A stretch of 64,000 nucleotides of DNA from an uncultured Planctomycetia bacterium (GCA_964649665.1 CAZYPU010000001.1:16428-80427); one strand, 5' to 3'; positions 37,494 to 62,555 are shown, counted from the stretch's first letter. The notes: generated by a model from the sequence alone, not told the origin. Program-made: numbers and translations.

Positions 37494-37578
37494 CATTAAA
37501 TCAACCCAAGCTAGCGTGCACTTCTCCGTGAATAGTTGACCCGTGTTAAAGATAAAAAAGCCAGATTAAATATTACAC

Positions 37579-40600: not shown

Positions 40601-43600
40601 CATGCGGCCCTTGACGCGGGCGCGCTGACCCTCAAAACAGTGATAGACAACATAAAAGGCGGCGAAAAGGCGCTGAATGAATATATAGGAAAAAATCCGC
40701 GCAGGCAGGTGCCCGGCATGCGGGCTCATTATGCCCTCCGCCTTCTTTTTAGGCAGAGAAATCCAATAAGAGACAAACTTCTTACGAGGTTTTTAAAAAT
40801 TATCCAGCCCGTAAGGGATTTTCTTGACATCCGGCTGTTCGGCGGCTTGAGCTTAGCAGGGCGTGCGGGAATCCTGGCGGTATTCGCGTATGTCCTTGAG
40901 AGTTACGTAGGAACAAATCGATGGCTTTTGCTCTCGGTCATCGCGGTATCTTCGATTATATTAGTGGATGTATGGTATTCTTTATGGGAAAAATGGGAAA
41001 AAACCGGTGAACTTATAAACGGTCTCTTGGGCACGCGAAAAGGGCACGAAACTTTAACGGCAGAAGTAAACGAGATCGTGTTTGATCGGTATCCGGGACG
41101 ACGGTGGATTCCTGGTAATGTGAAAGAAGCGTTGAAGCTTGATGATCCATCGGCGGATACGACATACATAATAGCGAGTTTTAAAAAGAGTAATGTTCCC
41201 ATTGGGTACCTCGCCTTTACGGCCAAATCAACAGACGCGGCGATTACATGCGTGAATCTTTGGATTAATGAAAAACACCGGCACAAGGGTATAGCCCTGA
41301 AGCTATTGGAAAGATTTTTGGAGGAGGCGGAACGCAGGCAGAAAAAAAGCGCAATATTTAGATTGAAAAAAAACGAGGGCATCAATCTGGATGTCGTAAC
41401 AGGGCTTCTGAAGGCCGCCGCGGCTTTGCGGGGAGCGAGGATTGCGATTGTCCCAACAAGTTACGGTCGGCTGATACGCATATGGTTGTATAAATCAAGG
41501 CCGCGGACGCAACTTCTTTCAGCGGCGCTGCCTTTGTCCCTACTGGCCATAGAAGCCGCGAAGGAAGAGCCGATTATCATAAAGCCGTGGATGGAGGCCG
41601 CGTTTATGGCAGGTTTTGCTTTTCTATGCTTGTGTGAAATTATCCGGAAGTATTGGGATGCGATCAAAGAAAACAGGGCGGTTGGATACGCGATTGAAAG
41701 ATTCGCCAATTTGATCAAATGGCTTGATGACTTTTTACCGATCGTATTTTTAGCCGCTATTTTGAGCTTTGTGCCGTGTCCGAAAGTAAGTCCATCCGCG
41801 CATGCCGCCATGGTGACACAACCGCCCGCCGCGGCGGGGGTTGTTAATACCTTGCCAGTTGCAGCGCAAGTAGGCGCGGCCGATATTTCGTCAACGCTGC
41901 TAGACTTCATATCGACACCTGTGTCAATCGGGTTAATGATAGGACTGATTTTTGCTATCTTATGCATGATGTACAGAAAAGTGGCGGCCGCTCTGTTTAA
42001 CAACACGTGCGTATATATAAAAGAGATGCTGGGAGATAAGTATATTAGGTTCTGGGCGCGTTTTCAGGAAGACCGCGAGGCGCTCGAACGGCTTTTTGCA
42101 GAGTCAAGAAAGACCGCGCAGAAATATTCGTCATCGCCGCAAGATAGCGTGGAATTTTATGCCATAGAATGTTACCTTATAGCGCGTCGGAAGGGCAAAG
42201 TCAAGTATATACACTTTTCACAAGAACTGGCCAAAGCGTTTCGTAGAGATCGTCGATTTATCGGGCGGTCTATCGCATGGTACAGATTCAGGGTGCGACT
42301 TAAGTCCCTTTGGGCGCGGATATTGCTTAAAGGTGAAGGATTGGCCGGCGACGGGCTCGAGGATCTGCAAAAAAGTATAAGATACTGCGAATCATTATTA
42401 AGGTTGGACACGTTGATTTACAAAAATAGGGAACAATACGCACGGCAAATATTCGACGCAATAATTAATAACCCCGAGCGTTTCCCGGGCATCAAAGAAG
42501 TTCCCGATCCGGATGATCCCGGAACGCACATGTTGGTGTACGAATCTCCGAATAGTTCCGGCGTAAGAAATCCCAAAGACGGTTTTATAAAACCGCTTTT
42601 AATACCCACTTTAACCGGTATCGCCGCGCCGGCGGCGGGGGCGGTATTAGCGGCTCCCTACTTTGCGGAAATTCCCACATATATTAGTGACATTTTAAAC
42701 TGGTTTGCCTCTATCGGCGCGGGTGGCGCACTTTCGTGGAAGACAATAGCTATATTAGTTACCTTTGTCCCGCTTTTCATTTCCATCGTATCCGCTGTTA
42801 AAGGGGAATCGTTGTCAGGAAAATACCGGGGTATCTGGCGGGAAAGGCTTGAAAAAGCCCTGAGGAAGCACTCGAAACTTAACAAAGACGGCGTAATTCC
42901 GGATCTCGCGACACTTTTGAGTATCCGACACAAATTATTTAGATCAGAAAGAGCAAGCGGCAGTCTTTTGGCAATTTTGCAGGCATATCAAGATTTGCTA
43001 TCCGGCGGAATTATCAAAAAACCGAAATTCGCGCCTTTACACATTTTCGTCCTTCGTGACTTGGGTTTCGTCACTGACGAATTGTGGGCGGAATATGAAG
43101 TGTATATAACCTCAAAGAACAATGATGAAATCAGTGAACCACGGATAAAACTGTGGCATTCTTTGGTGCGGGCGGTTCTTAAAAAAGAAGATATGCTGGG
43201 TAAAGACGGAACTATCGACGATGTAAAAAAGCTGGAGGGCATCAAACCGGACTTCTTTACATCCAGAAAAGGGCGGGCTGGAATCAACGAGGTATACGAA
43301 GCCTTTCAGCGCGCGGCCAAAAAGAAAAACATTCCATATAGGTACGCGCACAAAAGAAAATTCGTATTATATGTGCTTAGGATTCTGGGTTTTTTGACGG
43401 ATGAGATGTGTGGGATAGTCGAGAATATTGATTTCACATTTCCATCGGACAAATTAAAGAAAAAATACCACGCCGCATTGGCGCCGGTGTTACGAAAAAA
43501 GGATATTTTGAACGAGAAGGGGAAAGTGCGGGACATTGATGCTCTTTTACGTGTCAACGTTAAATTATTCCGGGCGCGTAAGGAAGAAGGGAAGGGCGTC

Positions 43601-46600
43601 AGTTTATACAGTATTTTTATTAGCTATCAGAAAAAAGCGAGACTCAGCAGGATAAAGAAGCCGAAGCACGCGACATGGCCTTGCTTTATCCTGTATAGTT
43701 TGGGGTTCGTAACTGATGAAGTATGGAAAGGTTATTTATCCTACCGCAGGAAATTACTGCTAAAAAGAGAGACACGGGCTGCTGAAAGGCAATCTAAACC
43801 GGTGCCCTTTCCCGCTTCATTCAATGTAACGCAGGCGCAGTTATCGGGTGTCCGAAAAGCGCTCGAAAAAATACACGTCCTTGACGAAAAAGGCATGATA
43901 AAATCGCTCGGCGCATTTGATAGTATAACCAGGCAGTCAATTGTTGAAGGCGGAGGCGGCCCCGCGTACGGCATTTTTAAATCAGGCATACAAAGGACAG
44001 AGCAGGCGCTGCCCGGAGGAACGGACTTGTGTCACTATATGCTTTATCACCTGGGCTTTGTAAGCGAGGCTGTGTGGCTGGAATACACACAATATCTGAA
44101 GATAAAAGAAGCGCTGAAAAAAGTCAACATGCTCAACCGCCGGGGCAAAATCCGCGATATCACCGCTCTTCTACGCGTAAATGCAACGTTTTTAAGCAAT
44201 CAGGGCATCTTAGGCGTATACCTATCCTACGTAAGAGCGCATTATGAGTTTAAGCGGGATACGCCTAAAGGCATAAAATTACACTATTACGCGCTATATC
44301 GCCTCGGGTTAGTTACCGAAGAATTATTGCGCGAATACAAATGGTATATCCGGCTGGAGAAGGCGTTACGGACAAGGTTAAAACTTGACCAAAACGGGAA
44401 AATTCGCGACCACGCGACCCTTTTAAGCATAAATACGAATTTCCTTGAAAAAGAAGGCCTTTTGGAAGGATACAGGCTTTATATGGAAGCCCATCCCGAA
44501 CTTGCCAAAGAAACACCCGAAGGCACGGAACCCCATCATTACCTTCTACGCCATTTAGGGTTATTTGCCAAGGCGCTATTCACGCAGGAGAGCGAGGGAT
44601 ACGCACAGCTTAAAAACGCGCTTAAGGAGAGCGAAAAGCTTACCCCCGAAGGCGAAGTCCGCGACCTCAAGGCTCTTTTAAGCATAAACATAGAGTTTTT
44701 CGAAAAGAAAAAAGTTCTTGAAGCCTATCAATCCTGTCTGAAAACCGTCGCCGAAGAATTACCGGAAGGCGCAGAGGGCTGTCATTACGTCTTATACAGT
44801 TTAGGGCTTGTTTCGGGCAACCTCTGGACCGAATACACATGGTACTGCCGCCTGAAAAAGGCGCTCAAAGGCGCCGGGAAGCTCAGCCCCGAAGGCATTA
44901 TTAAAAACCTCACCAGCCTGCGCGGCATAGACTACGCATTTTTTAATGAGCATGGCATTGTGAGAATATCGCAATTCTATACACGCCGGTATCCCGGATT
45001 CTGGAGAGGGATTCCGCGCGGCGCGGATGGGTGGCGCTATCTTTTATACAATCTCGGGTTCGTTGACGATGAGTTGTGGCAAAACTATCTATGGTATGCG
45101 AAGATAAGCGTCACGCTTAAAGCGGCCGGAAAACTCGATAAGCAGGGAGCAATCAGGGACATAAACACCCTTTCAAACATCGGCGCAGCGTTTTTTAAAG
45201 AACACGACATCTCGGGCATATACCAGGCATATTTAGAAGAAAACCCTGATTTTATTCAAAGCGTGCCGGAAGGGGTGGAACCGCGGCATTATTTTTTGTT
45301 TATTTTAGATTTCATGCCGGACAAATTCTTGCGCGAATACAAATGCTGCAGCGAGATGAAAAGAGCGTTAGAAAAAGCCGGAAAACTGAATAAGGCAGGG
45401 GAGATTCCCGATTTGGCGACGCTGCTCGGCATGAATAAAAAATTCTTCTCTGAAATTGGCGCATTACCTGCATACGAGGCATACCTTGAGTTTTACCCCG
45501 AGCTTGAGCATCATGCGCCTGAGAAGGAGTCCGCGGAGTGCGATGCGCTTCACCGGATGGGGTTTGTTTCAAAAGAGCTCTATCAGAAATACATGCTGCA
45601 CCTCAAGGTAAAACAAATTTTGAAAAACTCCGGAAAACTCGACAAAACGGGTAAATTCCGAGATATAGACAGCTTCTTGAGCGTAAACTCTGGTTTCTTA
45701 AGGGAACATAAAATCTTAAACAGTGCCGACGCTTTTTTCAGGAAAAACCCGGAACTGATGAAGAAAATGCTCGCCACTGCGGACATATCCCACTGTTTCC
45801 TGTATTGTTTAGGTCTTGTTTCCGAAGAACTTTGGAATAAGTACGAAACGCGTTGCCCGTTCAAAGCGGTGCTGTGGAAAGAAAGGCTCCTTGATTCGCA
45901 CAGAAGAATTCGCGATTATGACGCACTGTTTAGTATAAACGCCGCGTTTTTGAAGAAGCACGGACTGCTAAGCTTATATCAATCTTACGTACAAGAGCAT
46001 CCGGGTTTTGCTGAAAAACTGCCGGAGGGAGCGAATCCGCGACACTATTTCCTGTACCGGATGTACCGGATGGGGCTTGTGTCTGACGAGGTATGGAACG
46101 GATACATAAAGTGCGTGACCACGCCGGAGTTTCTTAAGCTAAACGACGAGAAGCGAATGTGGTATGTTACACGCCGCTATTGTCTTGAGGCCGCGCGGAT
46201 AATAAGGCCGGGAGAGATTATACAGGAGGCCGCGATCCTCTTAAACATAAGGGAACCGGTTTTTCGCCGCAAAAAAACAAAAGAGACGTGGCGTGAAGCG
46301 ACGAGATATTACAGCAGGCAATGGGAAGAAGGGCTATTGGGAAAATTTGAGCTCGAAAACCTTGATATATATATACTAAAGGACCTGGGACTTGCGACAG
46401 CGTCATCATGGGATGAGTATCTTGCCTATTCTGCCCGGGAGAGAGCGGCGCGGATTGAGAAATCCGCTATGACTGCGAGGGGAAGCGTTCTTAACAGAAT
46501 CAAAGGCCTGGCTGTGGATATCCAAAAAGCTATCGAGGAAGGCGATATCGCTTCCGCGGCGGCCGCCCTTGATATGATCGATAAGCTGTGTGAAGGACAT

Positions 46601-49600
46601 GGCGGTAGAATATCGCTTCCGGAGCAAATTAAAATCCTTCTCGACGGATTCAGAGAACAAACCTCTCAAATGATCGACGCGGGAATGCGTGAATTCGCGG
46701 ACGCGCGCCGGGAAATAGAAAAAGGTATATATGCCGCGTATGCCGATTTAGTAAATTTAGTAGACAATATAGACGCTCTTGCCAATCCTCCGGTAGGAGA
46801 GGAGGGGGTAGAAGAAGAAGATCGGGCCACACACGAGCTTTTGATAATCCTTCAGTTTAAGCGGGAGTCTCTCGATAGTTTAAAAACGCTGGAAGATGAC
46901 CTGGAAGTTATCAGGAAAAAAATAACAGAACTGGTCGGCGAATCAGGCAATTTTGAAAATACGCTCGCGGCCCGTGCCGTTATCCAGCTCGAAGAGCTGG
47001 AGGAAGGAATCCCTAAGTTGCCGGCAAAAATTGAAAAATTGTTTAGCCGGTTATTAGGAGAAAACTCTGGAAAAGAAGAAGCGCAAGAACCTATCGAGGA
47101 TATTGAAGTTATTGTAGATATTGAGGTAGAGCCGGGGGCAGCGAAAGGGCCGGACTTAGAAATAGCAGCCGATATAACGATTGAGGAAATGCCGGACGAA
47201 GAGCCGAAAACCACGGAAACTGAAAACATAAAAGAACGAAGATTGGACCTGGAGTTTGCCCGGGACTTATTATCGATGTTTGATAGCGGTGTGCCTGTAA
47301 CCGAAGGTGAAATACAGGACGAGATAGACTATATCGAGTCTAATCTGGAGGCAATAAGAGGGGAGAGCAAAAAGCTGTGGGAGACGGCAAAAATGCTTTT
47401 AGAAAGGCTGAAAAAAGCAAGGTGGATAGTAAGGATAAAAGCCAGGAAGTGCCTCGCTGGAGCCAGGAAAACTACGGAACAACCTTCATCAGAGTTAATA
47501 GCGAGCCGCACTATTGGGGGATTCTTGAGGCAAAATCCTGACAAAACATTGCTCCAGATTATGCCGTTAGTCGTCAGAACCGGGAATTGGGTAGCTGTGG
47601 AAATCGCGATAGGAATGATCAGAGAAGACGAAACACTAAAGCTTAAAAAGGATGACGCGGCCTATTTAGCGGAAATCGAAGCACAACTGCTCAAAGCGCA
47701 AAAAGCACAAAAGGGCGCTAAAAAAACTGCCAAAAGCAAGCCCACCAGAAATCCCAAAGACGGTTTTATAAAACCGCTTTTAATACCCACTTTAACCGGT
47801 ATCGCCGCGCCTGCGGCGGGGGCGGTATTAGCGGCTCCCTACTTGTCGAAATCATTCGGTTTGCCGCTCGTGGCGGGCGTGGCGATAATAGCCATCATCC
47901 TTATTTTGTATTCACGATACAGCAAAGAGATAAAAGCCTTATGGAAAATGACCTGTATCAATTTAGGTGACTTATACGAAGATTTTTCTATTGAGATCAT
48001 GGAGCGCCTTAGAAAAGACCACGAAACATTTAAGTGGCTTTTTGATTATGTCGATGAACTTGTGAAACTTCCGATGTCATTTGAAAACGCCGAGAAATTA
48101 TTCGCGGTAAAATGCTATTTGTTAATTCGTAAAAAAGGTCGTGTTAATTGCGACCGATTTTTGAGAACGTTGACAAGCGCTTTGAGGGACGACATAGAGT
48201 ATTCCAGGCAATCCATAGTCTGGAACAATTCCATGATAGGGCGGAAGAAATTTTGGGTGCATCTTTTACGGCGGAGCGACGATAGTACAACCAAAAGGGA
48301 AATCAGGGACCTTGAATCCGAAATAGAACGCGAAAGAATCTTAAGCGAGATGGAGATAGAGGGGGCGCAAGACATGCTTAATGGTAAGGAAAATTCTGTC
48401 AGGCGGATATTCGACCTGGTATGCGCTAACCCGGATTTTTTTCCGGGAATAAAGAAGATACCCGATTCAAAGAATCCCGAAATAGGGGCGCTTGCGTACA
48501 TGCCGGCGGCGCCGGAAAGCTCGGTCGCTGACATGGGCATTTGTAAACACGTGCTTTTAAGCGTGTCTCCGAGGGAAGAGACAACGCTTGAAAAACAGAC
48601 CCAAGAGGCGCTTTCAAGGGCAAAGAAACTTTTGACGGACATGGGATACAATGAGAGCGCCGTAGTGAAACAAACCGTTTTTTTGAGGAGCGTTTCGGAT
48701 AAGGCAGAATGCAAAGAGATAATCGAAGCGCATTACGACAGGGGCCCGCCTCCGGCCACAAGCTACATAAAGGAACCGCCCGCCGACGGAAGCGATGTTA
48801 CGATTGAGATATTGGCCATAAAAGGCGAAAACACAAATGTCAGAAGAGTAAACGAATTTCTCACCGTTGTAGAACAGGAAAATCTCAAATGGGCCTACGT
48901 CGCCGGCATCGAGCCGGATGAAACGATACCGGATGAAACGATAGAAGATACCTATGAGCAGGCGCTTAATGCTTTCCGGAAAATGAAGGATGTCCTCGAG
49001 GAGAATGGATTCAATTTTGAAGACGTGATACGAACATGGATTTACGAGCGCGATCTTTTAAAGACAGAAAACGGAAGCCAGAGATATCAGCTTTTGAATG
49101 ACGCGAGAAGCGAGTTTTTTAATACAGGGGACAATGGTAAAAAGATACATTTTGGCAGGAATTTCAGGAATTTAATAAGAGACCCGCAATTGAAAGAAGA
49201 GATTCTGCCTCCCGCTTCCACAGGTATTGGCATGTCAGGCGGAACGTTTGTCATGGAATGCCTGGCGCTTTCCACGACGAGAAACGACGTAAGCATCACG
49301 CCTTTGGAAAATCCCGACCAGGTACCCGCGCACAAATACAGCAAAAAAGTGTTGAGAAAAGGAAGGAGCGAAGAGGAAAAAACATCACCCATGTTTTCGC
49401 GGGGGATGGTTGTTAATATCGGCGGTTATAAAATGACTTTGATTTCCGGCACCGCCTCAATAAAGGGCCCTAAAACCGTACACAAAAGAAGTGTTAAAAA
49501 ACAGACAAAAACCACCATAGAAAATATCTTAAGGGTTATAGAGCAGGCGGGTGCGAGCCTGGCGGATATACCACAACTCAGGGTTTACATCAAAAATTCG

Positions 49601-50536
49601 AAACATTATAAAGCGATACGGAAAATCGTGGAAGAAAGATTCCCGGGTAAAGCGTGCGTGTATTTAATAGCTGACGTCTGCCGGGATAATCTCCTCGTGG
49701 AAATCGAGGCAGTGGCGTATACATACCAAAAGCCTGAAGCCGTAACCGAAGAGACGGTTTTGCAAGAGACAGATCCGCCGAAGGAAGCCGCAAGAAGAGA
49801 AGGTAAGAAAGACCGGCCGGCTGATGAACCGCATGAACCGGGCGTACCGGTTGCAGAAACGAAGGGGAGCCCGGAAGACGTAATGCAATTCTTGAGGAAT
49901 CTTCGGATCCCCAAAGAGCTCGCGCAACGTTTTGTGGAAAGCATAACTTCGCGCGCCTTGGGCAAAAAAGAAATTATTCTGGCGTTCGAGGATGCGATAG
50001 GAAGCGGCAGTGATAAAAGCCCCCTCAGCATCTTCGAGGCGTTGAAAAAACTGAGAAAAAACCCCACATTCTGCCTTCTTCTTAAAAACGTTGACGTTGT
50101 TATTGGTTCATCGAATAGTCTTCATAATAAGCTCCAGCGGCATTTCGCAAAACCCGATACGGAGGTATTCCTGTTCGCGAGGGCAGATTCCAGGGAGAGA
50201 TTGAGAGGGGTAGAAGGCAAGCGAGGCGTGCATTCCTTCTACATAAAAGATAAGGGTTTTAACATAAAAGATAAGGATTTTACCAAAAACGCCTATTATC
50301 CCCTTCTGGAGATAGTGACAATTGCCCTAAAACAGCATATTGCTGATTTAGTTTCGGTCAGCGTTGGGCTCGATAAACTAGGCATAGAGCTTGAGCAATT
50401 GGGAATAGAATCGATACTGGAAGAAGAATCCACGGGTGTTTTGGTTTTCACACTTCTGCCTAACGCGAAAGCGCATGACAAACAAGCCCTTATCAAGCGA
50501 TACGCCGACTTAAAGCGCTTCATCCGCTCTGCGTAG
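37682..50536 (+). CDS. Giant multi-domain membrane-associated protein (4284 aa): GT2, GNAT, ~13 novel ~80-aa repeats and tandem RidA-like domains
   Basis: Single uninterrupted 12.9 kb ORF. N-terminal signal-anchor homologous to that of the next giant ORF (ILWANP versus ISWAYP). Domain calls are listed as separate features. Confidence 0.85.
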   Translation: MGQNKSIIFKAICFSLVITFCFENILWANPEAFKKNVSNGTLQVQSKINPIATPELLHQGLIEFSLRYIVQAVDDIANINFPLTPEAPHYAKDIKIVLDFSPPTENKKEGKHKEGDNWIVPCTIFDSRGRYFWTYEAVIHPDKSISWKKKISAESAIVPEPQPPAPPVEEPTLAPQASRPLPNPSAFRDLHRSEEGARWPFGKRQLATQDPRRDSDRVEHALGKTRQRYELTQVMDRIVQGVKEKFGSGFVLAIDGQKATRKTTLSEIMSKGISDISSGDIEVLSYTKGMYERERDYMRVVKRALREKKLVVCEGQSMVQILEEGNIFPDLILYHKANLMTQLYSSFLRSFLLSKAYRERMLDDEKKGLSLLLTLCDWAPFGLIFFIWEVYKIFTEKKSDKETLNELSKRPNCVTLNFSTYKLGGLTIEDVYGIMTSVADSASYPSVATVEHGLISEVPGAPLTAEDYVRQKEKEGAEFILLYSREGRLVRCMSIKEAKYAAGNMEIAGIALRIKEGETQFFEAGRTDFETGKIVESLDYTAEMKEPKKVYFVVPMHKEMKRLLPETKDNPYGEDALRKTVWQLQEGSRINRRFKWQLILVDDGTPGNASAKLAEKLWAEIQEEYASWGETLDPSQVIIEKITPREKKKMKSRKGGAVLRGFNIALKSASPGDYIGYTDLDISTDMRQTGFLLKALAEGDAEVAIGSRWAKGGKGEKVPPSGIVSSKVYNLLVQTLMPPLRGIQDTQRSFKLFTKRAAEEILRHAKDNGFAFDTELLLLAKLLSYRTSEVPIAWIDSPGATTLSMFTDGPKMVWSLFRQRRHMFGKMFRSSYIMTRSGATSGSGEGERPLGLIGKWMLTPEAKFKEDHPGCRAGDITFMARRIDYPERDEIEIKLRARCVPFTEFDNFRRTGVEEIDSALKEFLYAFTSLKVKGVTLYMEPNRYGIYGIGTKDIIAVRGPLRFSKIAKTHEIMHAALDAGALTLKTVIDNIKGGEKALNEYIGKNPRRQVPGMRAHYALRLLFRQRNPIRDKLLTRFLKIIQPVRDFLDIRLFGGLSLAGRAGILAVFAYVLESYVGTNRWLLLSVIAVSSIILVDVWYSLWEKWEKTGELINGLLGTRKGHETLTAEVNEIVFDRYPGRRWIPGNVKEALKLDDPSADTTYIIASFKKSNVPIGYLAFTAKSTDAAITCVNLWINEKHRHKGIALKLLERFLEEAERRQKKSAIFRLKKNEGINLDVVTGLLKAAAALRGARIAIVPTSYGRLIRIWLYKSRPRTQLLSAALPLSLLAIEAAKEEPIIIKPWMEAAFMAGFAFLCLCEIIRKYWDAIKENRAVGYAIERFANLIKWLDDFLPIVFLAAILSFVPCPKVSPSAHAAMVTQPPAAAGVVNTLPVAAQVGAADISSTLLDFISTPVSIGLMIGLIFAILCMMYRKVAAALFNNTCVYIKEMLGDKYIRFWARFQEDREALERLFAESRKTAQKYSSSPQDSVEFYAIECYLIARRKGKVKYIHFSQELAKAFRRDRRFIGRSIAWYRFRVRLKSLWARILLKGEGLAGDGLEDLQKSIRYCESLLRLDTLIYKNREQYARQIFDAIINNPERFPGIKEVPDPDDPGTHMLVYESPNSSGVRNPKDGFIKPLLIPTLTGIAAPAAGAVLAAPYFAEIPTYISDILNWFASIGAGGALSWKTIAILVTFVPLFISIVSAVKGESLSGKYRGIWRERLEKALRKHSKLNKDGVIPDLATLLSIRHKLFRSERASGSLLAILQAYQDLLSGGIIKKPKFAPLHIFVLRDLGFVTDELWAEYEVYITSKNNDEISEPRIKLWHSLVRAVLKKEDMLGKDGTIDDVKKLEGIKPDFFTSRKGRAGINEVYEAFQRAAKKKNIPYRYAHKRKFVLYVLRILGFLTDEMCGIVENIDFTFPSDKLKKKYHAALAPVLRKKDILNEKGKVRDIDALLRVNVKLFRARKEEGKGVSLYSIFISYQKKARLSRIKKPKHATWPCFILYSLGFVTDEVWKGYLSYRRKLLLKRETRAAERQSKPVPFPASFNVTQAQLSGVRKALEKIHVLDEKGMIKSLGAFDSITRQSIVEGGGGPAYGIFKSGIQRTEQALPGGTDLCHYMLYHLGFVSEAVWLEYTQYLKIKEALKKVNMLNRRGKIRDITALLRVNATFLSNQGILGVYLSYVRAHYEFKRDTPKGIKLHYYALYRLGLVTEELLREYKWYIRLEKALRTRLKLDQNGKIRDHATLLSINTNFLEKEGLLEGYRLYMEAHPELAKETPEGTEPHHYLLRHLGLFAKALFTQESEGYAQLKNALKESEKLTPEGEVRDLKALLSINIEFFEKKKVLEAYQSCLKTVAEELPEGAEGCHYVLYSLGLVSGNLWTEYTWYCRLKKALKGAGKLSPEGIIKNLTSLRGIDYAFFNEHGIVRISQFYTRRYPGFWRGIPRGADGWRYLLYNLGFVDDELWQNYLWYAKISVTLKAAGKLDKQGAIRDINTLSNIGAAFFKEHDISGIYQAYLEENPDFIQSVPEGVEPRHYFLFILDFMPDKFLREYKCCSEMKRALEKAGKLNKAGEIPDLATLLGMNKKFFSEIGALPAYEAYLEFYPELEHHAPEKESAECDALHRMGFVSKELYQKYMLHLKVKQILKNSGKLDKTGKFRDIDSFLSVNSGFLREHKILNSADAFFRKNPELMKKMLATADISHCFLYCLGLVSEELWNKYETRCPFKAVLWKERLLDSHRRIRDYDALFSINAAFLKKHGLLSLYQSYVQEHPGFAEKLPEGANPRHYFLYRMYRMGLVSDEVWNGYIKCVTTPEFLKLNDEKRMWYVTRRYCLEAARIIRPGEIIQEAAILLNIREPVFRRKKTKETWREATRYYSRQWEEGLLGKFELENLDIYILKDLGLATASSWDEYLAYSARERAARIEKSAMTARGSVLNRIKGLAVDIQKAIEEGDIASAAAALDMIDKLCEGHGGRISLPEQIKILLDGFREQTSQMIDAGMREFADARREIEKGIYAAYADLVNLVDNIDALANPPVGEEGVEEEDRATHELLIILQFKRESLDSLKTLEDDLEVIRKKITELVGESGNFENTLAARAVIQLEELEEGIPKLPAKIEKLFSRLLGENSGKEEAQEPIEDIEVIVDIEVEPGAAKGPDLEIAADITIEEMPDEEPKTTETENIKERRLDLEFARDLLSMFDSGVPVTEGEIQDEIDYIESNLEAIRGESKKLWETAKMLLERLKKARWIVRIKARKCLAGARKTTEQPSSELIASRTIGGFLRQNPDKTLLQIMPLVVRTGNWVAVEIAIGMIREDETLKLKKDDAAYLAEIEAQLLKAQKAQKGAKKTAKSKPTRNPKDGFIKPLLIPTLTGIAAPAAGAVLAAPYLSKSFGLPLVAGVAIIAIILILYSRYSKEIKALWKMTCINLGDLYEDFSIEIMERLRKDHETFKWLFDYVDELVKLPMSFENAEKLFAVKCYLLIRKKGRVNCDRFLRTLTSALRDDIEYSRQSIVWNNSMIGRKKFWVHLLRRSDDSTTKREIRDLESEIERERILSEMEIEGAQDMLNGKENSVRRIFDLVCANPDFFPGIKKIPDSKNPEIGALAYMPAAPESSVADMGICKHVLLSVSPREETTLEKQTQEALSRAKKLLTDMGYNESAVVKQTVFLRSVSDKAECKEIIEAHYDRGPPPATSYIKEPPADGSDVTIEILAIKGENTNVRRVNEFLTVVEQENLKWAYVAGIEPDETIPDETIEDTYEQALNAFRKMKDVLEENGFNFEDVIRTWIYERDLLKTENGSQRYQLLNDARSEFFNTGDNGKKIHFGRNFRNLIRDPQLKEEILPPASTGIGMSGGTFVMECLALSTTRNDVSITPLENPDQVPAHKYSKKVLRKGRSEEEKTSPMFSRGMVVNIGGYKMTLISGTASIKGPKTVHKRSVKKQTKTTIENILRVIEQAGASLADIPQLRVYIKNSKHYKAIRKIVEERFPGKACVYLIADVCRDNLLVEIEAVAYTYQKPEAVTEETVLQETDPPKEAARREGKKDRPADEPHEPGVPVAETKGSPEDVMQFLRNLRIPKELAQRFVESITSRALGKKEIILAFEDAIGSGSDKSPLSIFEALKKLRKNPTFCLLLKNVDVVIGSSNSLHNKLQRHFAKPDTEVFLFARADSRERLRGVEGKRGVHSFYIKDKGFNIKDKDFTKNAYYPLLEIVTIALKQHIADLVSVSVGLDKLGIELEQLGIESILEEESTGVLVFTLLPNAKAHDKQALIKRYADLKRFIRSA
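39329..40150 (+). other. Domain: family 2 glycosyltransferase (DPM1-like polyprenol-phosphate glycosyltransferase)
   Basis: YFVVPMHKE ... LVDDGTPGNAS ... YTDLDIS (DxD) ... QRSFKLFTK. Confidence 0.7.
41150..41345 (+). other. Domain: GNAT N-acetyltransferase
   Basis: IGYLAF...VNLWINEKHRHKGIALKLLERFLEEA (motif A, R-x-x-G-x-A-type). Confidence 0.55.
43040..46430 (+). repeat. Intragenic array of ~13 divergent tandem repeats of ~75-85 aa (K-A-L-x-K-x-G-x-I-R-D-x-x-x-L-L-x-I-N ... P-E-G-x-E-x-x-H-Y-x-L-Y-x-L-G-[FL]-V-[ST]-[DE]-E-x-W-x-x-Y)
   Basis: Recurrent LGFVTDELW, LGFVSEAVW, LGLVTEELL and LGLVSEELW units read in the translation. No known family recognised. Confidence 0.7.
48533..48826 (+). 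other. Domain: RidA/YjgF/L-PSP-like (first copy)
   Basis: AVVKQTVFLRSVSDKAECKEIIEAHYD..PPATSYIKEPPADGSDVTIEILAI. Confidence 0.55.
49394..49722 (+). other. Domain: RidA/YjgF/L-PSP-like (second copy)
   Basis: LISGTASIKGP..TIENILRVIEQAGASLADIPQLRVYIKN..HYKAIRKIVEERFPGKACVYLIADVCRDNLLVEIEAVAY. Confidence 0.65.
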
Positions 50537-50588
50537 CACGCCGTAACAGCGTGTAAATCAACCCTGTTAGTATTTTCAATAGTTACCT

Positions 50589-50625
50589 TCCTGTGACACT
50601 TGCCCCACTATTTTATGCTATATTA
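50589..50625 (+). promoter_or_regulatory. Second copy of the TCCTGTGACAC-N15-ATGCTATATTA motif, directly upstream of the 3897-aa giant ORF (ATG 9 nt after TATATT, so likely leaderless)
   Basis: See 37579-37615. Confidence 0.55.
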
Positions 50626-50633
50626 AATCTTAT

Positions 50634-53600
50634 ATGTTGCATATAAAACGTAGTATTTGGGTAAAATTTATAGCAATGGGCATGGCCTGCCTATTTTTTC
50701 TTGACACCATCTCGTGGGCGTATCCCGTTGACCGGTCCGAAATTACCACTCTCGCCGCGCAAAGCATGTTCAACTCCATTCTCGACGCCATTACAAAAAA
50801 GCCCTCCGAACGCTACTCATACCGAAAGCGTCTGGAAAAAGAAATGGTCTGCATTATCGAAATGGCGCTTAGGGCGCTGGATAGGAAGAACCCTGACATT
50901 GACTGGGGAAGCCACCTCAACATTAACGCGGCGCTTAACACGATGCAGCATGACGGGCGTTACCGCAAGCTGATGGAAGTCCTGGATATACCGAGGCGCC
51001 TGGAGGACGAAAAAGGGGAGTACATCGAAATACTCGTAAAAACCACAAGGCCAAGCGGAAGACAAAAAGAATTTACGATTAAATTCCGCGGCGAAAAACT
51101 CGATGACCTCTCTGATCGGGGCAAGATTGAGATTATATCCGCGGAAGGGAATACTGCGCCGGCGCCAAATACGGATATCGAGGCGCCGAAAGGACCGTAC
51201 GGAACCGGGGTAAAAAGGGTTAAGGTACCATTCAAGGAAAAGAATCTGGAGGCGCGAAAAAAGAAAGCGCTTTCCTTTATTAAAATAAAATCCGCCGAAT
51301 ACTGCCACAGTGAACTTTGGGATAATATCTGGAACAGCCTTGTTTATAATGGGGGCGTAGCTGAAATAGGAGCGGTTTTAAAAAGGAAGATAAATCGGGT
51401 TCTGCGCTCGCCCCCGGTGGTTAGGAAAAAAGAAGTTGCCATGGAGGCGGTGAAGAGCCTTGCGACTTCTCTTGCCCTAAAAGAGAACTCCGGCAGCGTT
51501 GACCGCGCGTTAATGCGTGATTTTAGAATAGCGGTTCTTTTATTGCTGGATATCTTTGTGCCGGGCATACATGAGGAATTTAAAAAGCAAGATATTTTGG
51601 ACGGCGAACATTTCTTTCCCGGGATATTCGACCGCCTCTCGATTCGCGGTATCCCTGCCGCCCCGGCCGCAGACATGGCCGAGCCGCAATCGCCAAAACC
51701 TGAAGGCCCAGCGCAGGGGCCGAAAGCCGAATTCATGATTCCGGGCGCGGCGCCGGACATGGGCGCGGCGGCGCTCGGAGCGCTCTGGCCGTTCGGGTTA
51801 GTCGGCGCTCTGCCGAGAACACCGCGGCGCCGGTTCGGGGAGCCCCTTATAGATTCGTTATTTAATCGCGGCAAGCGCTTCATGCAGCCGGCTATCCCGC
51901 CCGAGATGGGCGGCGCCGTAGCCGAGCCGGCATCGCCGAAGCCCGCACATGGGACAGGTACAAGCTCGGATTTGAAAGCGTCCCTACCGTCCTATACCGA
52001 AGAGACCCTGTATGCGCTGGAACAAGCAGGAGGCAATCAGGCAAAAGCAGCCGGCATACTTAACATAGGCCTATCAGCTGTCTCAGAGAGAAAAAGCCGC
52101 ATAAGACGAGTCGCCGTCAAAATAAACGATAATGCCACGCTCAAACGGCTGCTACCCCTACCGTCCTATACCGAAGAGACCCTGGAGGCGCTGAAAAAAG
52201 TAGGGGGTAATCAAGTAAAAGCAGCTCGTGTGCTTAGTATAATCCAACAAACTGTTTCACAGAGAATAATCGCCATAAGACGGGCCGCCGCCAGAATAGG
52301 CGATAAGGCCACGCTTGAACGACTTGCTAAAGCGCTATTATCATTACCTGCTTATACCGAAGCAACCCTGGAGGCGCTGGAACAATCGCAAGGCAAGCAG
52401 AAAGAAGCAGCCGGTATACTTAAGATAAGCCAAGCAACTGTTTCACGAAGAATAAGCGCCATAAGATCAATCGCCACCAGAATAGACGATAAGACTACAC
52501 TTGAACGGTTTAATGAAGTGTTAAAAGTCTCAAAAGGCGCCGCCCCAGGCGACAGCGTATCGTCAAGAGGTCGTCAAGGCGCCGCAATCGGCGCGGGACT
52601 TACCACTTTAAGCTGGCAGGCGGGATTATGCTTCTTCGCGTTCCTATTCGTTTATGAGATCGCCCGGCAGGTCTGGTATGCGAGATTCTACAAGAATTTA
52701 CTCGATAGCCACCCCAAGGCTACGCGAATAATCAATTCCTTCTTCTCAAGCTCCTTCCATTTCCCGCGGGTCATAGAAGATTTTATAAAGAACCATATCA
52801 CGCAGCCGTTACTGAATATATTCTCAAGAATAAGATTTCAAAGCCCGATCGTGCAGGTCCGATTAGCCGGCATTGGCCGCACGATTACCGTTTTCAGAAT
52901 GCCGGTGGAACTAATGATGTCTGAGAAATCGCCGCAGAAGCCGCCGGGCCATGCGCTAGGAGAGCTGCCGGCGTCCACCGCAGTCCCGTCCGAGCCGCTA
53001 GGCGCGCCGGAGGGAGCACACTCCCAACCTGACAAACTCGAACAGGTTAGGATCTTGTTGCGCACGCTCATCCAAAAAATAAATTTATTCTTTTTTGGAA
53101 TATTTTCGCAAAAGAAACAATCGCGCGAAGTTGGCCTTGAAGATTTGGTTTTTGAAAGGGCCGTTATAATCGGCGAAGGATCGTTCTCCCGTGTATTCAG
53201 AGTCCCGCATAAAGACAATGGCGTCGATTACGCGTTAAAACTTTATTGCAAGGCGCCTCCGGGTTATTCTCTGAAGAGCGCCGTTGAATTGATCGATTAT
53301 CAAATGCGCATCGCCCGCGAGTATCCGCAACTGATTAAATCCGGAATCATGCCCAAGTATTTTACAAAAGGCAGTTGTTATTTTGACGGCGATAGGCTCA
53401 GCCTTGCACCAATAAGCGAAAAAGCATACCCATGCCTGCTGATGGAGTATATCAAGGGAGATGATCTATCTTCTCTATCAGATCTGGATTATCACGTAGG
53501 GACAAAACTTGTTAGGGATGCATTGGCGGAGGGGCAAGACCAATATATTATCGCTGCCCTATATAATATTCTGCGTGATAAGCTGGACGAGGCATATTCT

Positions 53601-56600
53601 ATAGCGCAGGCAGTTAATGCCTGTCATAGCGCAGAGCCTCATGGCACTTTTCCCGGGGGATTACTGATTAAGGAGCTCAAGCCGACTAACATTAAAGTAC
53701 GGCCAGACAAAACCGTTTGCCTGGTGGATCTCGAAAGTGCGGTCCCGCTAAATTATGACTGGGTGCGTAATCCTTCCGGAGTGCCGCCGGTAGCGAGACT
53801 GGTGATGACCAGCGCTTTCAGCGAGGATAAAAACGCTTTTAAAGACAAATCCAAAGCGGGCTTAATCCTCTTAGGGCAAAAATTGGATGTGCCGTGGGAT
53901 ATTTATAGTTTTGGCGTGGTATTATCGAGGATGCTGCATGAATATAACATAACGCTGGATGACGCCGCAGAGATTAAGGAAGCAGCAGTACAAACCGATA
54001 CGATGAGAAGGTTCTTGGAAAGAGCAGAATTTGCCAAGGGACAATTTAAGCGGTCGATCGCCGGCATGAAGGAGATTATAAAGAAATGCACGATAAAAGA
54101 TCGAACGAAGCGCTACCGGGATATGGGCGAGGTCATCGAGGCGCTTAAAGATTGCATTGGCGTGGTTGATAAAGAATTCAGGGGCAAAATTCCCGCTGAG
54201 CTGCCGTCGCAGGAACCGCGCGGCACCACGTCCCAAGAGAGCATTGAGCCTAAAGCAGCCGCGGCCGAGCCGCCGGCGCCGCGAGTCGCGCCAAAGGCGA
54301 CAGAGCCATTGCCGGAAACTGCAGGAACAAATTCAGGCCCAGATTCGAAATCGCCTCTGTCCCCGTCTATGCTTCCGGGCGGGGAAGAACAGCCGTATAA
54401 GCCCGGCCAATACGTATACGAACACCCGTATAAGTGGTTTTTAATTTCCGCAGCAGGGTTGTCAGCCAATTTGCTTGCGGCGGCCTTATGCCTGGTCCCG
54501 GCTATATTGATTTCATCTTCCATCAACCTTTCCACGCCACCGCTTATAGCGCTCGGCGGCGCGCTATTATATTGCGCAGGCGCTCTGAACGCGATAATAT
54601 TTGCCGTTAACATTCTCGAAGCCGGCATGGCGTTTATCCGGGGAGACGTTGTGGTAAAAGACATCCCGTCGGAAACGGATAAAATTAAAAAATACCTTTA
54701 TACCGCCAGCATACCGCACGAACTGGGCCACTATCTTATGGCGAGGTTATTCGGATTAAATGTGAAATTTTCCACAATCGGGGTTGATTGTAAAGATATC
54801 GACGTGTTTGAAGTAACCGATTATACGAATATGCGCTACGCGATTAATATGATGAAAGAACGCGGCCTTTTCCCATTCTCAAGCTCGCAACCCGGCAAAT
54901 TTAATCGGGTTAAAATCGGGGGGAGTAATGAATTCGTTTTTAATGTTACCGAAAAAGACAGATATTTGTTAGAGCAAATGGTTCGGGCCTGGGCTTCGGA
55001 GAAAAGCCTTGACGCCGGCATTGAAGTGACAATGGATAACCGTCTCATCAACGTTTATAAAGGCCATGACCAGTACGCAATTCTGAGTTATTCGGTGGGG
55101 ATGGGAGAAAATTCAGAAATTGAAATCACTATCTATAATCAACGCGTAGAGTATCCATATAAAAGTCAGGGATTGATGGCGCTTTTACAAACCTATATCT
55201 TTTATCTGTCTAAATCGGACAAAGTCACTTATTGGAACATAGAAGGTACGGACGGAAAGGTATTCGCGAAAACAATGGAGGATAAAGGTATCTTAACGGA
55301 TGTAAAATACAAGAAAACTTCCCGCCTCGAAGATCATACCGAAGTGCGCTATGCGGAAGCGAGCATTAATAAAAACGTAGTGGCACAAAGAGCCAAGGAC
55401 TATCCGTTCGCGGCCGAGCCGCCGTCGCCGCAGGGTCCGAAAGCCGAATTCATGGTCCCGGGCGCGGCGCTGGATACAGGCGCGGCGGCGCTCGGAGCGC
55501 TCTGGCCGCTCGGGTTAGTCGGCGCTCTGCCGAGAACACTGCGGCGCCGGTTCGGGGAGCCCTTTATGGATTCGATATTTAACCGCGGCAGGTGCTTTAT
55601 GCAGCCGGCTATCCCGCCCGAGATGGGTGGCAGCGCGACCGAGTGCGAGGCGCCGAAGCCTGTGAATATTAGCGCTGAAAAAAAGGAGGCGTTTTTTAAT
55701 GAATTAGGTATAGGAGAGGAAGCCCTCGCAGCCGCTATCTTGAAATCCCCTACACTCGCAGGGCTTAACCCAGCCCGTGTAAGGAGGGCCTGGAGAGATA
55801 AATTAGGCATAGAAAAAGAAGCCCTCGCGGCCGCTATCTTGAAATGGCCTAAAATTGCAGGCTATAATGTTCCAAATAATATCAAGCCGAAACTGCAGAT
55901 TCTCAAGATGTTTAATGTCGGAAAAAATAAAATAATGGACTTCCTTATCAGGATAGTTGATTTTAACAGCAAGGCATTGGAATTTATTTTAGAGGCCTCA
56001 AAAGCGTCTTCTTTTGAGATAAAAGACATCAAGACATTAATAAGGATCTATAGAAAACTGAATAAAGCTGTCAAAGCTAAGACAAAAGTTACACTTGCCG
56101 GATGGTTCCGGGAACGAATAACCGATGATATTAATTTGACGGTGAAGCCAATTCTGTCGGATATTATAACCGAATTGCAGTCAGAAGAGACTGTGGATGA
56201 GGATTTGTGGGCAATGATAAAAGAAGCGAAGGCAATATTTGAGAGACAAGAAGAGAATGCCGTTGCCAGAGGCGAAAGAGAAGAACCTCGTAAATTTTCT
56301 CCTATTGCCTTATTTAGAATAGATTCGGCCCTTTACTATAGAGCCAGAAGAATAGGAATGTTGCGCAGGCTGCATTATATTAAACCCAGGTTAGGGTTGC
56401 GCAAGGAAGATACCGGCAGGCTTATTCAGGAGATAATGAAAGCAGAAGAAGAGTTTGACCGGCGTGAAGAGCGGGATGTCCGACGAGGATTTAGGGACAG
56501 CGCCCGCCCATGGATTCGTAGAAGGCTTTGGGAAATCAACCCATACCTGTATGATTTTTTACATAATCATAGGCCGGATTTACTCAAAACCTGCGTGCCT

Positions 56601-59600
56601 GCCGGCCTCCCGGGAAAGGGAAACCGCCACCAAAAGCTTCCAGATAACATATCTCTGGTAGGAAGAGAGGTTGATACTGAAGGGTTGGATTTAGATAATG
56701 TTTACTCTGACGTCAAGTTTTCCAAACCCGCTAAAGCGTCCGGTATAGGTATTTTTGCAAGAAACGAAGAATTGCTGGCAAAGATTGAAGAGATGATATC
56801 CGCCGGTGTCTGGGATCGGCGTGAAGCGTTCATTGTGAAGGAACGGTTGGGACTTAATCCGGAGGGAGCCAGGCGTTCCCTGCAGGAAATTGCGCATGCC
56901 CTGCGCATTACCAGAAACAGGGTATGGCAGATTGAGACAGACGCTATCCGGAAAGCGCAATTTTGGCTGAGGAAATCCCAACACCCTGTATTGAACGCAG
57001 AAAACGATGGACCGGCGTCTGGCACTGCGTCTGAACAGACAACAGCTACCGCCTCGGCCAAGTTGGCACCGCAAAAAGAACATGGTGGCACGTCGTCAGG
57101 AAATTCTTACGGCGCCGCAATCGGCGCGGGGCTTACCGGATTAAGCTGGCAGGCGGGATTATGCTTCTTCGCGTTCCTATTCGTTTACGAGATAGCCCGG
57201 CAGGTCTGGTACGCGAGATTCTACAAGAATTTACTCGAGAGCCACTCCGGGCCTGCCCGAATAATCAATTCCTTCTTCTCAAGCTCCTTCCATTTCCCGC
57301 GGGTCATAGAAGATTTCATAAAGGACCATATCACGCAGACGCTACTTAGCGTCGTTTCAAGAATAAGATTCCAAAGCCCGATCGCCAAAGCTCGGCTGGT
57401 TGATGGTTCAGTGGCACAGTTTCTTCAGATGCCGGTTGTATTTATGAGCACGGATTCAGGCGGCGAGGCTATAAAACGACCCGCCACCCTGCCTGTGAGG
57501 GTAAAAGAATTTTCTCAGTTGGATTCGATGCCGCTACACGGCTCGATAATGGAGTTGCCGATTTCCAGTAGAATTAAAAAAAGGTTGGCACGTGGAGGCG
57601 TCAAAACTATCGATGAACTTAAAAACATGACGCTCGACAAAATTCGTCAAATTTACGGGATTGGCGAAAAATCCATGACTATTATAAAAGCTATAAAGGA
57701 TAGGCTTGATGAATTGGCTGATATAGAGATGATGAAAAAAGAGCAATTAGCTAAGGAAGAGAAAAAGGCAGAAAATAAAAGGCGGCGGGAAAGACTAAAA
57801 TATATACGTGACGAGTTAGGCGTTAGCAGACTAAAATTCATTTCACTATTAAATGCCGCTGGGGCCGCATCCACGATAGAGATGTTGGGATATCTAAGAG
57901 GGTTAACCATTATCCCGGATCGGGTTATCGATAGTGCGGAGAATTTATTGCGACACGAGCGCGAAATAGCAAGAACAAGAGCGGTTCAGCTAGAAGCAAA
58001 AAGACAATTGGTTTCCTGCATTACGGCGTTTGAACAATTAAAAGAAAAACTTAAGACAGCAGATTTTGATGAGAGGAGGAGCGAACTTACGATTGCGCAA
58101 ATCTGGGTTGAGCCGGATTACCATACAAAGGAAATAGGCATTCACGGTTTTATGGATACAATCGCTGATAAAATAATCGCTCTAGATATTAAACCTCAAA
58201 ACCACAAGGCATTAAGGGCGCTTTTTGAATTAAGTGTAAGATATTTCAGCGGCAATATCAATGTTTTTAGAACCGTTTTGGCAAATATAAATAATGTAGA
58301 AGAACTGATAGAATTCCCTGCTTATATTGGATCCAACGGATTTAATCGCGAAAGCATAGATGAAGAAATGCGGCGTTTCCGAGAATGGCTACGTTCTAGA
58401 AGGGCAATACTTCCTTTCGAAACGGGCACATTTTCGTGTCCTTCTTGGTGGCCGTATGTGCCGAATGAGCTGGCTCCCGTCACAAGTGTCGGCAGGAGAA
58501 AATATTCCAAGGACGAAAGAGTTTCCGTAGGATATGGAGGATTTTTTGAAGGGTATTTAGATTTTATTATTGTCGGCGATACAATGCGAATTGGCGAGAT
58601 TCACGGTAAAATAGAAATGCACAGATTAATCCCAGAGGTTCGAAAGAAAGTAAGCGGCTGGGAAAAGTTGGCGCTAGAAGAAGCCATTAAAGAGGCCGGG
58701 CGGCGAGGGGTCAAGACGATTTTGTTCTCCCCTCCATTCGCGCAATACAGAGCGCTTAGCCAATGGAATACGTCTAACCCCGATTCGGATATAGCTTACA
58801 GGATTTATAGTAACCTGCCTTTTGATTCAGGGTTTAGATTAAAGATTAGAGAAAAAATCGTTTTTAGCGAAAATTTCCGCAATCAATTATTCTCTCATCT
58901 TGTATGGCAAAGAGACGCCGCCCCGGCCGCAGTCGCGGCCGAGCCGCCGGCGCCTCTGGCATCGGCCGGAGCCGCGGGCGAAACCCAAACACCCGCCGCG
59001 CGGAGGATAGTCGATACTATAAATGGTTATGAAGAAATCTTCCCGGGAGGCAACGCAGTCGGCCGTTATATAGATCCTGAAGGTAATCCGAGGAATTGCA
59101 CACTAAGCAGGGCGTGTTATGACAATGACTTCTGCAGAATACTGGCGGCGGATATCGGCAATGGCAACGCCGGAAAGAAAGCCCTCTCCATAGGCGCGGG
59201 CTCGGGTGTGCTTGAGAGTCGGCTAAACGAGGCCCATGGCCTTGAAGTTACATGTATAGATATAATCTCGAAATTCATGCCGTGGGATATGCGGGGGTCC
59301 ATGGCGTTTACTCTTGCCGACGGTGAGCATCTTCCGTTTGCGGACAATAGCTTCGATATTGTCATCTTATCGGAAAGCATAGGGCATATGAAACTTGATA
59401 TCGCCCTGGCTGAAGCGTTCAGGGTCTTGAAGCCGGGAGGAGTGATTCATATACTGACGCCTGATCCTGCGAACAAACTGTCCTGCGATCCCAGTTTGTT
59501 CGCGGCGCTAAAATATTCTCCCTATGATATCGCTCAAATTATACATGGATTGAAGAATTCAGGTTTTGAAAATGGTGAAAGAATAAAAGATGACAACCGC

Positions 59601-62327: not shown

Positions 62328-62408
62328 TCATTAAGTGATAAAGAAACTGTGTCCGACCGCGTAAGTCGGACCTACGCGGTGATAATGTAAAATATTGTGG
62401 GCACTTTC

Positions 62409-62510: not shown

Positions 62511-62555
62511 AGCAAAGCGCCCAATTATCTTGACACTACTTACGCGGTCGAATTC

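Follow-up and report, generated by a model that had tools for sequence, protein, structure and literature searches.

An open question is how bacteria build and remodel genes for proteins of thousands to >100,000 amino acids. It bears on the 64,000-nucleotide stretch of DNA considered here (GCA_964649665.1, CAZYPU010000001.1:16428-80427, deposited as an uncultured Planctomycetia bacterium), which we call the window and whose first letter is position 1. Two giant open reading frames (ORFs), G1 (37682-50536, 12.9 kb, 4,284 amino acids [aa]) and G2 (50634-62327, 11.7 kb, 3,897 aa), follow each other on its plus strand, as do all features placed within them below, and three pairs of short segments inside these ORFs are near-identical in DNA. 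These segments are connectors of 32-100 codons between unrelated domain blocks, not whole modules, and their near-identity derives from recent shared DNA ancestry. We regard it as somewhat probable that the three pairs go back to recent non-reciprocal homologous recombination, whereby short-tract gene conversion within a gene made its older paralogous connector modules alike.

The pairs were called by self-BLASTN of the region 37-63 kb and of the whole window, together with a repeat finder. In pair 1, R1 (42566-42663) and R2 (47747-47844) match at 97 of 98 nucleotides (nt; E 7e-44); in pair 2, A (51712-51943) and A′ (55429-55660) match at 204/232 nt (87.9%, E 3e-80); and in pair 3, B (52560-52851) and B′ (57093-57384) match at 259/292 nt (88.7%, E 1e-105). 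The copies are spaced by 5181, 3717 and 4533 nt, respectively, all of which are divisible by 3, and all six lie in frame, those of pair 1 in G1 and those of pairs 2 and 3 in G2. The edges of the repeats are sharp or graded, and their flanks are unalignable, with saturated synonymous sites, which agrees with the much more diverged surroundings described in the initial annotation of this DNA. Except for REP-like intergenic elements and older tandem repeats inside G2 (73-83% identity; helix-turn-helix [HTH] units and a 64-nt unit at 55699/55798), the window has no other repeats of comparable strength. All three pairs had been claimed in that annotation and were recovered as off-diagonal segments at those places; for pairs 1 and 2, the second copy had been placed out of register, by 1 and 4 nt, respectively. 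Thus, R2 starts at 47747 and not at 47748, its identity of ~99% being borne out, and the in-register span of the second copy of pair 2 is 55433-55642 (offset 3717) instead of 55437-55640, with 188/210 identical positions (89.5%) where ~92% had been claimed. For pair 3, the span noted earlier gives 248/275 in the correct register (90.2%), as expected from the claimed ~90%.

The same G1 and G2 proteins are encoded, without any change in G2, on contigs of JGI 3300022553, JGI 3300025824 and ENA ERZ27245787 (MEGAHIT), and an identical G1 protein is also present in the ENA, JGI and NCBI assembly data. Over 13-14 kb, the DNA of these three assemblies is 100% identical to that of the window, save for 1-7 single-nucleotide polymorphisms in G1 on the two JGI contigs; the G1 alleles of the two JGI samples are 1 and 7 nt from the window and 6 nt from each other, and none of these differences falls inside the repeats. 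Every inter-copy difference is kept, namely, the single G/T of R1/R2 and the 28-33 differences of the other pairs. Copy-number or junction variants of the repeats are absent from the three assemblies; consequently, the population differences in copy number that had been proposed as a check were not seen, and recombination is not shown to be “ongoing” as the initial annotation worded it. The description of the repeats as a way to shuffle modules is likewise not supported in that wording, as these assemblies hold no deletion, duplication or exchange variant. Among the few polymorphisms, C49331T (H3884Y in G1) is common to both JGI assemblies, and one of the two has lost 2 nt and gained 2 nt within a 9-nt stretch (40225-40233), the two changes compensating each other (L850W and G851A in G1); the population is otherwise nearly clonal across samples.

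To separate likeness in DNA from likeness in protein, we counted, among aligned positions that agree in amino acid, those that also agree in codon, and set the counts against the values expected under the codon usage of the genes themselves (200,000 simulations). The same codon is found at 31 of 32 such positions in pair 1 (expected 10.5), at 51 of 57 in pair 2 (expected 19.4) and at 72 of 80 in pair 3 (expected 27.8), values that none of the 200,000 simulations reached. The internal control for an old duplication consisted of module X (41972-42559, G1 aa 1431-1626) and its old paralogue X′ (47918-48523), which are 26-30% identical in protein and whose codon identity is at chance (24/56, expected 20.6). 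Additionally, pair 1 differs by a single synonymous change (synonymous divergence, dS, ~0.04), and the cores of pairs 2 and 3 have dS values of 0.195 and 0.227 and nonsynonymous divergences (dN) of 0.118 and 0.095, respectively (Nei-Gojobori). As codon identity is far above expectation and the flanks are saturated, purifying selection on the peptides alone is insufficient. The near-identity is therefore a matter of recent shared DNA ancestry and not of protein-level constraint, and the recent DNA-level origin suspected from the first reading of the locus is borne out by the codon test and by core dS values of 0.04-0.23 next to saturated flanks.

What is repeated is not, as first annotated, a duplicated module. 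R1 codes for 32 residues, RNPKDGFIKPLLIPTLTGIAAPAAGAVLAAPY, which are marginally hydrophobic and lie 28 aa upstream of a strong transmembrane (TM) helix (G1 aa 1688-1706); R2, 1,727 codons downstream and with one synonymous difference (CCG/CCT), stands directly before another strong TM helix (G1 aa 3392-3410). The 1,727 codons between them hold a TM helix, ~14 old ~84-aa repeats and a coiled-coil/acidic region. A (QGPKAEFMIPGAA...GALWPFGLVGALPRTPRRRFGEP...PPEMGG), with A′ 3,717 nt downstream, is a Gly/Ala/Pro-rich stretch followed by an Arg cluster, RTPRRRFGEP, and is not predicted to span the membrane. B (GAAIGAGLT.LSWQAGLCFFAFLFVYEIARQVWYARFYKNLL...FQSPI), with B′ 4,533 nt downstream, belongs to a module family with further members in the related giant proteins P0028 and P0029, and is predicted to form a marginal TM helix that continues as a long amphipathic helix. 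An AlphaFold2 model of G2 aa 343-770, built with no alignment, has a mean pLDDT of 47 and only helices readable, and simple hydrophobicity analysis gives contradictory membrane sidedness for A and B, so that no topology is claimed. Neither R (with its flanks) nor A nor B has a relevant Pfam or NCBIfam match even at E <= 10, sorting-signal models included; an internal sorting signal of the PEP-CTERM, IPTL-CTERM or LPXTG type was considered and set aside with no curated model match, the likeness to IPTL in R and to RRRF in A being by eye only.

The blocks that these connectors bracket are mutually unrelated. In G2, A and B enclose an HTH cargo (51982-52514) of three tandem Fis-type repeats of 58-62 aa with 73-75% nucleotide identity, and neither BLASTP nor an HTH-repeat profile detected homology between it and the cargo between A′ and B′. 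As the two cargos are non-homologous, simple tandem duplication of an A-cargo-B unit is excluded.

The clearest indication of how the connectors came to be alike is found in module B, whose homology continues beyond the near-identical core. In an exhaustive HMMER search of 1.8 billion representative proteins, 35 relatives were found, nearly all of which match the HTH repeats only; module B was matched only in P0028 (one copy) and P0029 (two copies), at 24-35% identity. Within the core (G2 aa 649-739), B and B′ are identical at 80 of 91 residues (88%), against 23-34 identical of 88-89 when either is compared with these outside copies. Within the tail (G2 aa 740-775, 52852-52958, homologous to the B′ tail at 57385-57491), which is still alignable, B and B′ share 9 of 35 residues (26%), and the tail of B′ is no closer than those of the outside copies (10/31 for P0029 and 10/29 for P0028). 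A young core beside an old tail means that B and B′ are old paralogues with a recently overwritten core; the history of module B is mosaic, and such overwriting is what gene conversion means by definition. The mismatches between B and B′ are also clustered in permutation tests (adjacent-mismatch P = 0.0001-0.0003, gap variance P = 0.001-0.005), whereas in pair 2 clustering is marginal (P = 0.03-0.04). Mosaic history is thus found in pair 3, is marginal in pair 2 and is not found in pair 1, which has no flank homology. All pairs show the DNA identity above that of the flanks that conversion would leave (cores 88-99% identical), as well as the synonymous homogenisation seen in the codon test, with the old-paralogue control at chance.

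On these grounds, the mechanism with the best support is gene conversion; the case is strong for pair 3 and extends from there to pair 2, and we infer that the conversion was of RecA type and that the same process lies behind pairs 1 and 2. Under this proposal, older paralogous connector modules would already have been present within the same gene, and a conversion tract would have overwritten ~100-300 nt of them while the neighbouring sequence stayed at its old divergence. The homogenised connectors would then act as in-frame homology patches, and further recombination between connectors could lead to the deletion, duplication or exchange of the intervening cargo.

Several observations weigh against such a history. 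A conversion tract can start only where there is homology, and neither flank of pair 1 retains any. Relatives of module A were not detectable in the exhaustive HMMER search (0 of the 35 relatives match it), so that its history is not polarisable. The same search yielded no close orthologue of G2, and no sister-species orthologues were retrieved, the only relatives being the distant P0028 and P0029 (24-35% identity). As pairs 2 and 3 are similar in dS, a single duplication event followed by cargo replacement could also have given rise to them. Finally, the two B copies of P0029 show no codon excess (22/49 vs 17.2 expected, P = 0.09), and homogenisation is therefore not universal in the family. 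Gene conversion or concerted evolution, as the initial annotation had proposed, is best supported by pair 3, with its mosaic history and clustered mismatches, and is weakened by pair 1.

In the case of pair 1, the evidence does not tell conversion from copy-paste or insertion, and the latter fits at least as well. A cargo block inserted in frame, for example by template switching or by the Campbell-type recombination of an excised circle into a connector, would leave the connector duplicated as direct repeats on either side, the divergence of which would date the insertion, and R1/R2, flanking 5.18 kb, are the main case. Their knife-sharp edges with neither flank homologous, their single difference in 98 nt and the self-contained block that they bracket (TM helix, 84-aa repeat array and coiled coil) all favour insertion, as do the near-identical connectors that bracket single enzyme cassettes in relatives (a kinase-like domain; the pentose-phosphate enzymes Ribul_P_3_epim and Rib_5-P_isom_A; CheR). 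However, a donor copy, a circle junction or an insertion-free allele was not seen in the three assemblies, and the GC content inside the R1-R2 block is not clearly different. In G2, moreover, the pairs alternate (A B A′ B′) around unrelated cargo, for which single insertions offer no simple explanation, and the residual old homology beyond the identical core of module B is predicted by conversion and not by insertion. We therefore keep insertion as a real, albeit minority, possibility. A selfish in-frame mobile repeat, or a functional RNA or DNA element within the coding sequence, seems improbable. Rickettsia palindromic elements are reportedly selfish repeats inserted in frame into protein genes, and they resemble the present repeats in being ~100-150 nt long, translated within the host protein and sharp-edged against unrelated flanks; in fact, the sharpest repeats found here and in relatives measure 93-145 nt, sizes like those of in-frame selfish repeats, and R folds slightly better than shuffled sequence (z = -2.0). 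But the present repeats are not palindromic, with no terminal inverted repeat and a sole palindrome of 13 nt inside R; each has two copies only in 64 kb, always in the same gene and frame; and B is the core of a longer conserved module with relatives at the protein level, while the true REP-like elements of the window are intergenic and unrelated in sequence. Within the window, neither the palindromic structure nor the many copies of the Rickettsia class were found. A known RNA family can also be set aside, as there is no Rfam match anywhere in the window and the fold z-scores of A and B are -0.06 to -1.3 (-0.06 to -2.0 when R is included).

The two remaining explanations are weaker still. An old duplication, its likeness held by strong purifying selection on a peptide that meets the same partner protein, insertase or protease, could be argued from the hydrophobic or charged motifs that these peptides form at domain boundaries, from core dN/dS values below 1 (0.42-0.61) and from the conservation of module B across the family. 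Protein selection does not keep synonymous sites, however, and codon identity is 89-97% against ~33-35% expected, dS reaches only 0.04-0.23 whereas flanks and old paralogues are saturated, and a dN/dS of 0.4-0.6 is not strong constraint, all of which makes this account highly improbable. Assembly artefacts, that is, collapsed or chimeric repeats, deserve mention because the sequence comes from a metagenome and assemblies classically go wrong at repeats. The agreement of two JGI samples and one ENA assembly with the window over 13-14 kb, inter-copy differences included, speaks against them, as do the size of the repeats (98-292 nt, with two of the three pairs 88-89% identical), which assemblers readily resolve, and the two reading frames, uninterrupted over 12.9 and 11.7 kb. 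With three independent assemblies agreeing base for base, the mis-assembly that had been raised as a possible refutation is very unlikely, and we give an artefact next to no credence.

In favour of conversion, comparable young connector repeats occur in related giant genes from other metagenomes. Among 18 proteins of >1,500 aa (the three giant proteins of the window and 15 of the HMMER relatives), dispersed internal repeats of >=55% aa identity were found in six, namely, G1, G2 and four relatives. DNA was compared for three of these four, a small sample chosen for having such repeats, and the spacings in their genes are all in frame. P0030 (6,252 aa) carries a 145-nt linker with 97.9% identity between copies 993 nt apart, a third copy being ~80% identical; the codon test gives 44/47 (expected 17.2), and the linker brackets a kinase-like block as well as Ribul_P_3_epim and Rib_5-P_isom_A domains. 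In P0019 (3,849 aa), a 93-nt TM segment with 96.8% identity between copies 1,230 nt apart (29/29, expected 8.5) brackets a CheR-type methyltransferase. P0029 (3,929 aa) contains a 293-nt module with 82% identity (58/74, expected 25.9). Young, short, dispersed repeats at the joints of unrelated domain blocks are thus a recurring feature of this giant-protein family. On a related metagenome contig (L092), two giant genes that lie next to each other (4,767 and 6,252 aa) have 3′ ends, coding for their C-terminal domains, that are 94% identical over 522 nt (1-522 and 18746-19267), which indicates homogenisation between neighbouring giant genes and not within one gene only.

Other searches for relatives were uninformative. 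Word-index protein searches with the A-HTH-B region, the B core and X+R1 gave no match, and did not recover the query proteins themselves either. Peptide-pattern scans of genomes and metagenomes with module B returned at least 600 and at least 599 stretches, none of them confirmed by tblastn, which is not evidence of absence, and the same is true of a degenerate DNA pattern for YEIARQVWYARFYKN, which found no match in metagenome contigs and missed the source contig too.

Among known systems, the closest parallel is provided by the genes of assembly-line polyketide synthases (PKS), in which gene conversion between modules is well documented, including the regions named GRINS (Nivina et al. 2021, PMC8256042). 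Both are very long modular genes with dispersed segments that are >80% DNA-identical to another part of the same gene, and in both non-reciprocal recombination makes paralogous parts more alike than expected, a process that in PKS has been proposed to speed diversification. The segments studied here are nevertheless shorter (98-292 nt, against the 300-1,400 nt typical of PKS), they code for connectors where those of PKS code for catalytic domains, and they enclose cargos without homology to each other, while homology is common to all PKS modules. GRINS are defined as duplicated regions of >500 bp with >80% identity within a cluster and mean absolute GC and TA skews >0.15 (PMC8256042). The present repeats fall outside this class by length (98, 232 and 292 nt) and by skew (<=0.10), with |GC skew| of 0.05-0.10 and |TA skew| of 0.00-0.05, the gene-wide means being 0.135 and 0.162. 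In bacterial surface and adhesin genes, recombination keeps intragenic repeats near-identical in DNA, and in-frame changes in copy number are possible. In those proteins, the repeats stand in tandem and account for most of the sequence, while in G1 and G2 they are scattered at distances of 3.7-5.2 kb and border on unrelated domains.

Giant proteins have also been described in Omnitrophota, the phylum to which the window belongs (see below). Archaeovorins are Omnitrophota proteins of >30,000 aa, encoded by genes of >90 kb, most of which contain a divergent SecA DEAD helicase domain (West-Roberts et al. 2023, bioRxiv 10.1101/2023.11.21.568195), and a multi-enzyme SP+TM class has been defined among Omnitrophota long proteins with a threshold of >=10 kaa (Nielsen & Lui 2026, bioRxiv 10.64898/2026.06.07.730766). 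G1 and G2 share with them the phylum, a signal peptide with scattered TM helices, the arrangement of two such genes in tandem and single polypeptides that combine domains of glycosyltransferase, methyltransferase, acetyltransferase and kinase type. They thus resemble Archaeovorins in their Omnitrophota genome and in their multi-enzyme and TM composition, but not in size, as 3.9-4.3 kaa is far under the thresholds of >=10 kaa and >30 kaa, nor in SecA_DEAD, for which a Pfam scan of G1 and G2 gave no match at E <= 0.01. Nielsen & Lui (2026, bioRxiv 10.64898/2026.06.07.730766) scanned only tandem nucleotide repeats in what is the latest survey of long Omnitrophota genes, and judged the architecture to be old and not a recent expansion. 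The old ~84-aa array of G1 agrees with that judgement, and the young dispersed connector repeats are an exception that lies outside a tandem-repeat scan.

The G1/G2 locus and the three related genes thereby add a second layer to this picture, that of dispersed connector segments that are young in DNA, and recombination is therefore still acting inside these genes, at their joints. On present evidence, the process is ordinary gene conversion in a new setting and not a new mechanism. The bracketing pattern would fit a role of the connectors as in-frame recombination joints for cargo shuffling. In its broadest form, the idea would be that Omnitrophota giant proteins consist of unrelated cargo cassettes joined by a few standard TM/linker connectors, which short-tract conversion keeps near-identical and which act as in-frame homology joints for the insertion, deletion and exchange of cassettes; we hold this generalisation to be quite doubtful. 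If it were true, connectors would amount to a built-in recombination grammar for the growth and diversification of giant genes, and the young R1/R2 would mark a very recent gain of a 5.2-kb cassette. Should the pattern prove general across complete genomes, it would offer a testable route for the in-frame gain, loss and exchange of domain blocks, and connector divergence would allow such events to be dated.

The predicted products of the host genes are two membrane-associated multi-enzyme giant proteins of an Omnitrophota chromosome. The window is chromosomal, with ribonucleotide reductase, YchF, Mur ligase, GH65 and transporter genes and ~48% GC; the best matches of the neighbouring ribonucleotide reductase are Omnitrophota metagenome-assembled genomes (76-77% identity), the closest of which include JADHYN010000014.1, JABMQJ010000009.1 and JBDRHE010000027.1, and most of the 80 loci listed for this enzyme bear the Omnitrophota label. 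G1 runs from a signal peptide-like N-terminus through a GT2-like domain (GT2/AglJ-like in domain searches), GNAT, module X and R1 to the ~84-aa repeat array, the coiled-coil/acidic region, R2, module X′, a RidA/FkbO-like domain and a C-terminal domain. G2 begins with a signal peptide-like N-terminus, A, the three Fis-type HTH units, B, a protein kinase and a TM hairpin, and continues with A′, an mTERF-like region and a sigma70 region-4 HTH, B′, HhH, a methyltransferase, GNAT, a second methyltransferase (both of class I) and a C-terminal domain. Hydrophobicity analysis found five strong and several marginal hydrophobic helices, each of the two proteins having a few of the strong and several of the marginal kind. 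The ~84-aa array of G1 (42785-46453, aa ~1702-2924, between R1 and R2) comprises ~14 diverged units with 23-40% aa identity and no nucleotide-level identity, which marks it as old; its unit motif, HYxLxxLGFVTDELWxxY, also occurs in P0012 from another metagenome. In G2, an Ala/Pro linker, AAAEPPA, recurs at domain boundaries (51650-51692, 54236-54278, 58910-58952, 60290-60332, 61211-61253 and 61478-61520), the six or more copies being 88-96% identical in nucleotides over 26-43 nt, a likeness for which codon bias is one possible source and the same homogenisation, at work on joints that are shorter still, another.

Some features of these proteins are common to the wider family. The HTH repeat LPSYTEETLxALExxGGNxxxAAxxLxIxxxxVSxRIxxIRxxA (G2 aa 450-630) forms tandem arrays in ~30 signal-peptide-bearing proteins of 250-6,900 aa (P0001-P0027 among the set), many of which carry ALRPxAxKAS just after the signal peptide, so that DNA-binding-type domains are found on apparently exported proteins. 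The N-termini of G1 and G2 (37682-37780 and 50634-50730) have a signal-like segment ending in D/N-I/V-A/S-W-A-x-P, which, often followed by a TLAP.S.F-type motif, is common to giant proteins of different metagenomes. At the other end, G1, G2, P0018, P0023, P0027 and P0031 finish, by eye, in ...QAA, RSA or RAA. A ~200-aa C-terminal domain is common, by BLASTP, only to G1 and P0031 (29%) and to P0023 and P0027 (38%), and the C-terminus of G2 has no significant BLASTP match. To judge from their sequences, these common N- and C-terminal features suggest a family-specific export and C-terminal module. The ORF at 52-4992 (1,646 aa) ends in ...RILANA, as giant-protein C-termini do, and is without a signal peptide; it shows no more than a single, marginal hydrophobic stretch (Kyte-Doolittle 1.71, aa 48-66; none on a Hessa-type scale) and no Pfam or NCBIfam match, and its exact sequence is absent from the protein collection searched.

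Outside the coding sequences, REP/MITE-like palindromic repeats with the core tcattgcgagg...cgaagcaatctc...gagattgcttcg...cctcgcaatgacg occur in intergenic positions at 5022-5337, 7791-8098 and 62414-62540, 78-98% identical and in both orientations, just 3′ of ORF 52-4992, 3′ of a permease gene and 3′ of G2. Additionally, a 27-nt motif, GATAATGTAAAATATTGTGGRCACTTT, for which the chance expectation is none, is identical at 5000-5026 and 62381-62407, after the stop codons of ORF 52-4992 and G2, and could be a shared terminator, a regulatory signal or the edge of a REP-like element. Finally, the 540-nt gap 5′ of the G1 start codon contains two inverted repeats: one of 22 nt (37184-37205 / 37311-37332), with arms that are 91% complementary, and a large imperfect palindrome (37336-37498), with 78-nt arms that are 73% complementary and a 7-nt spacer.

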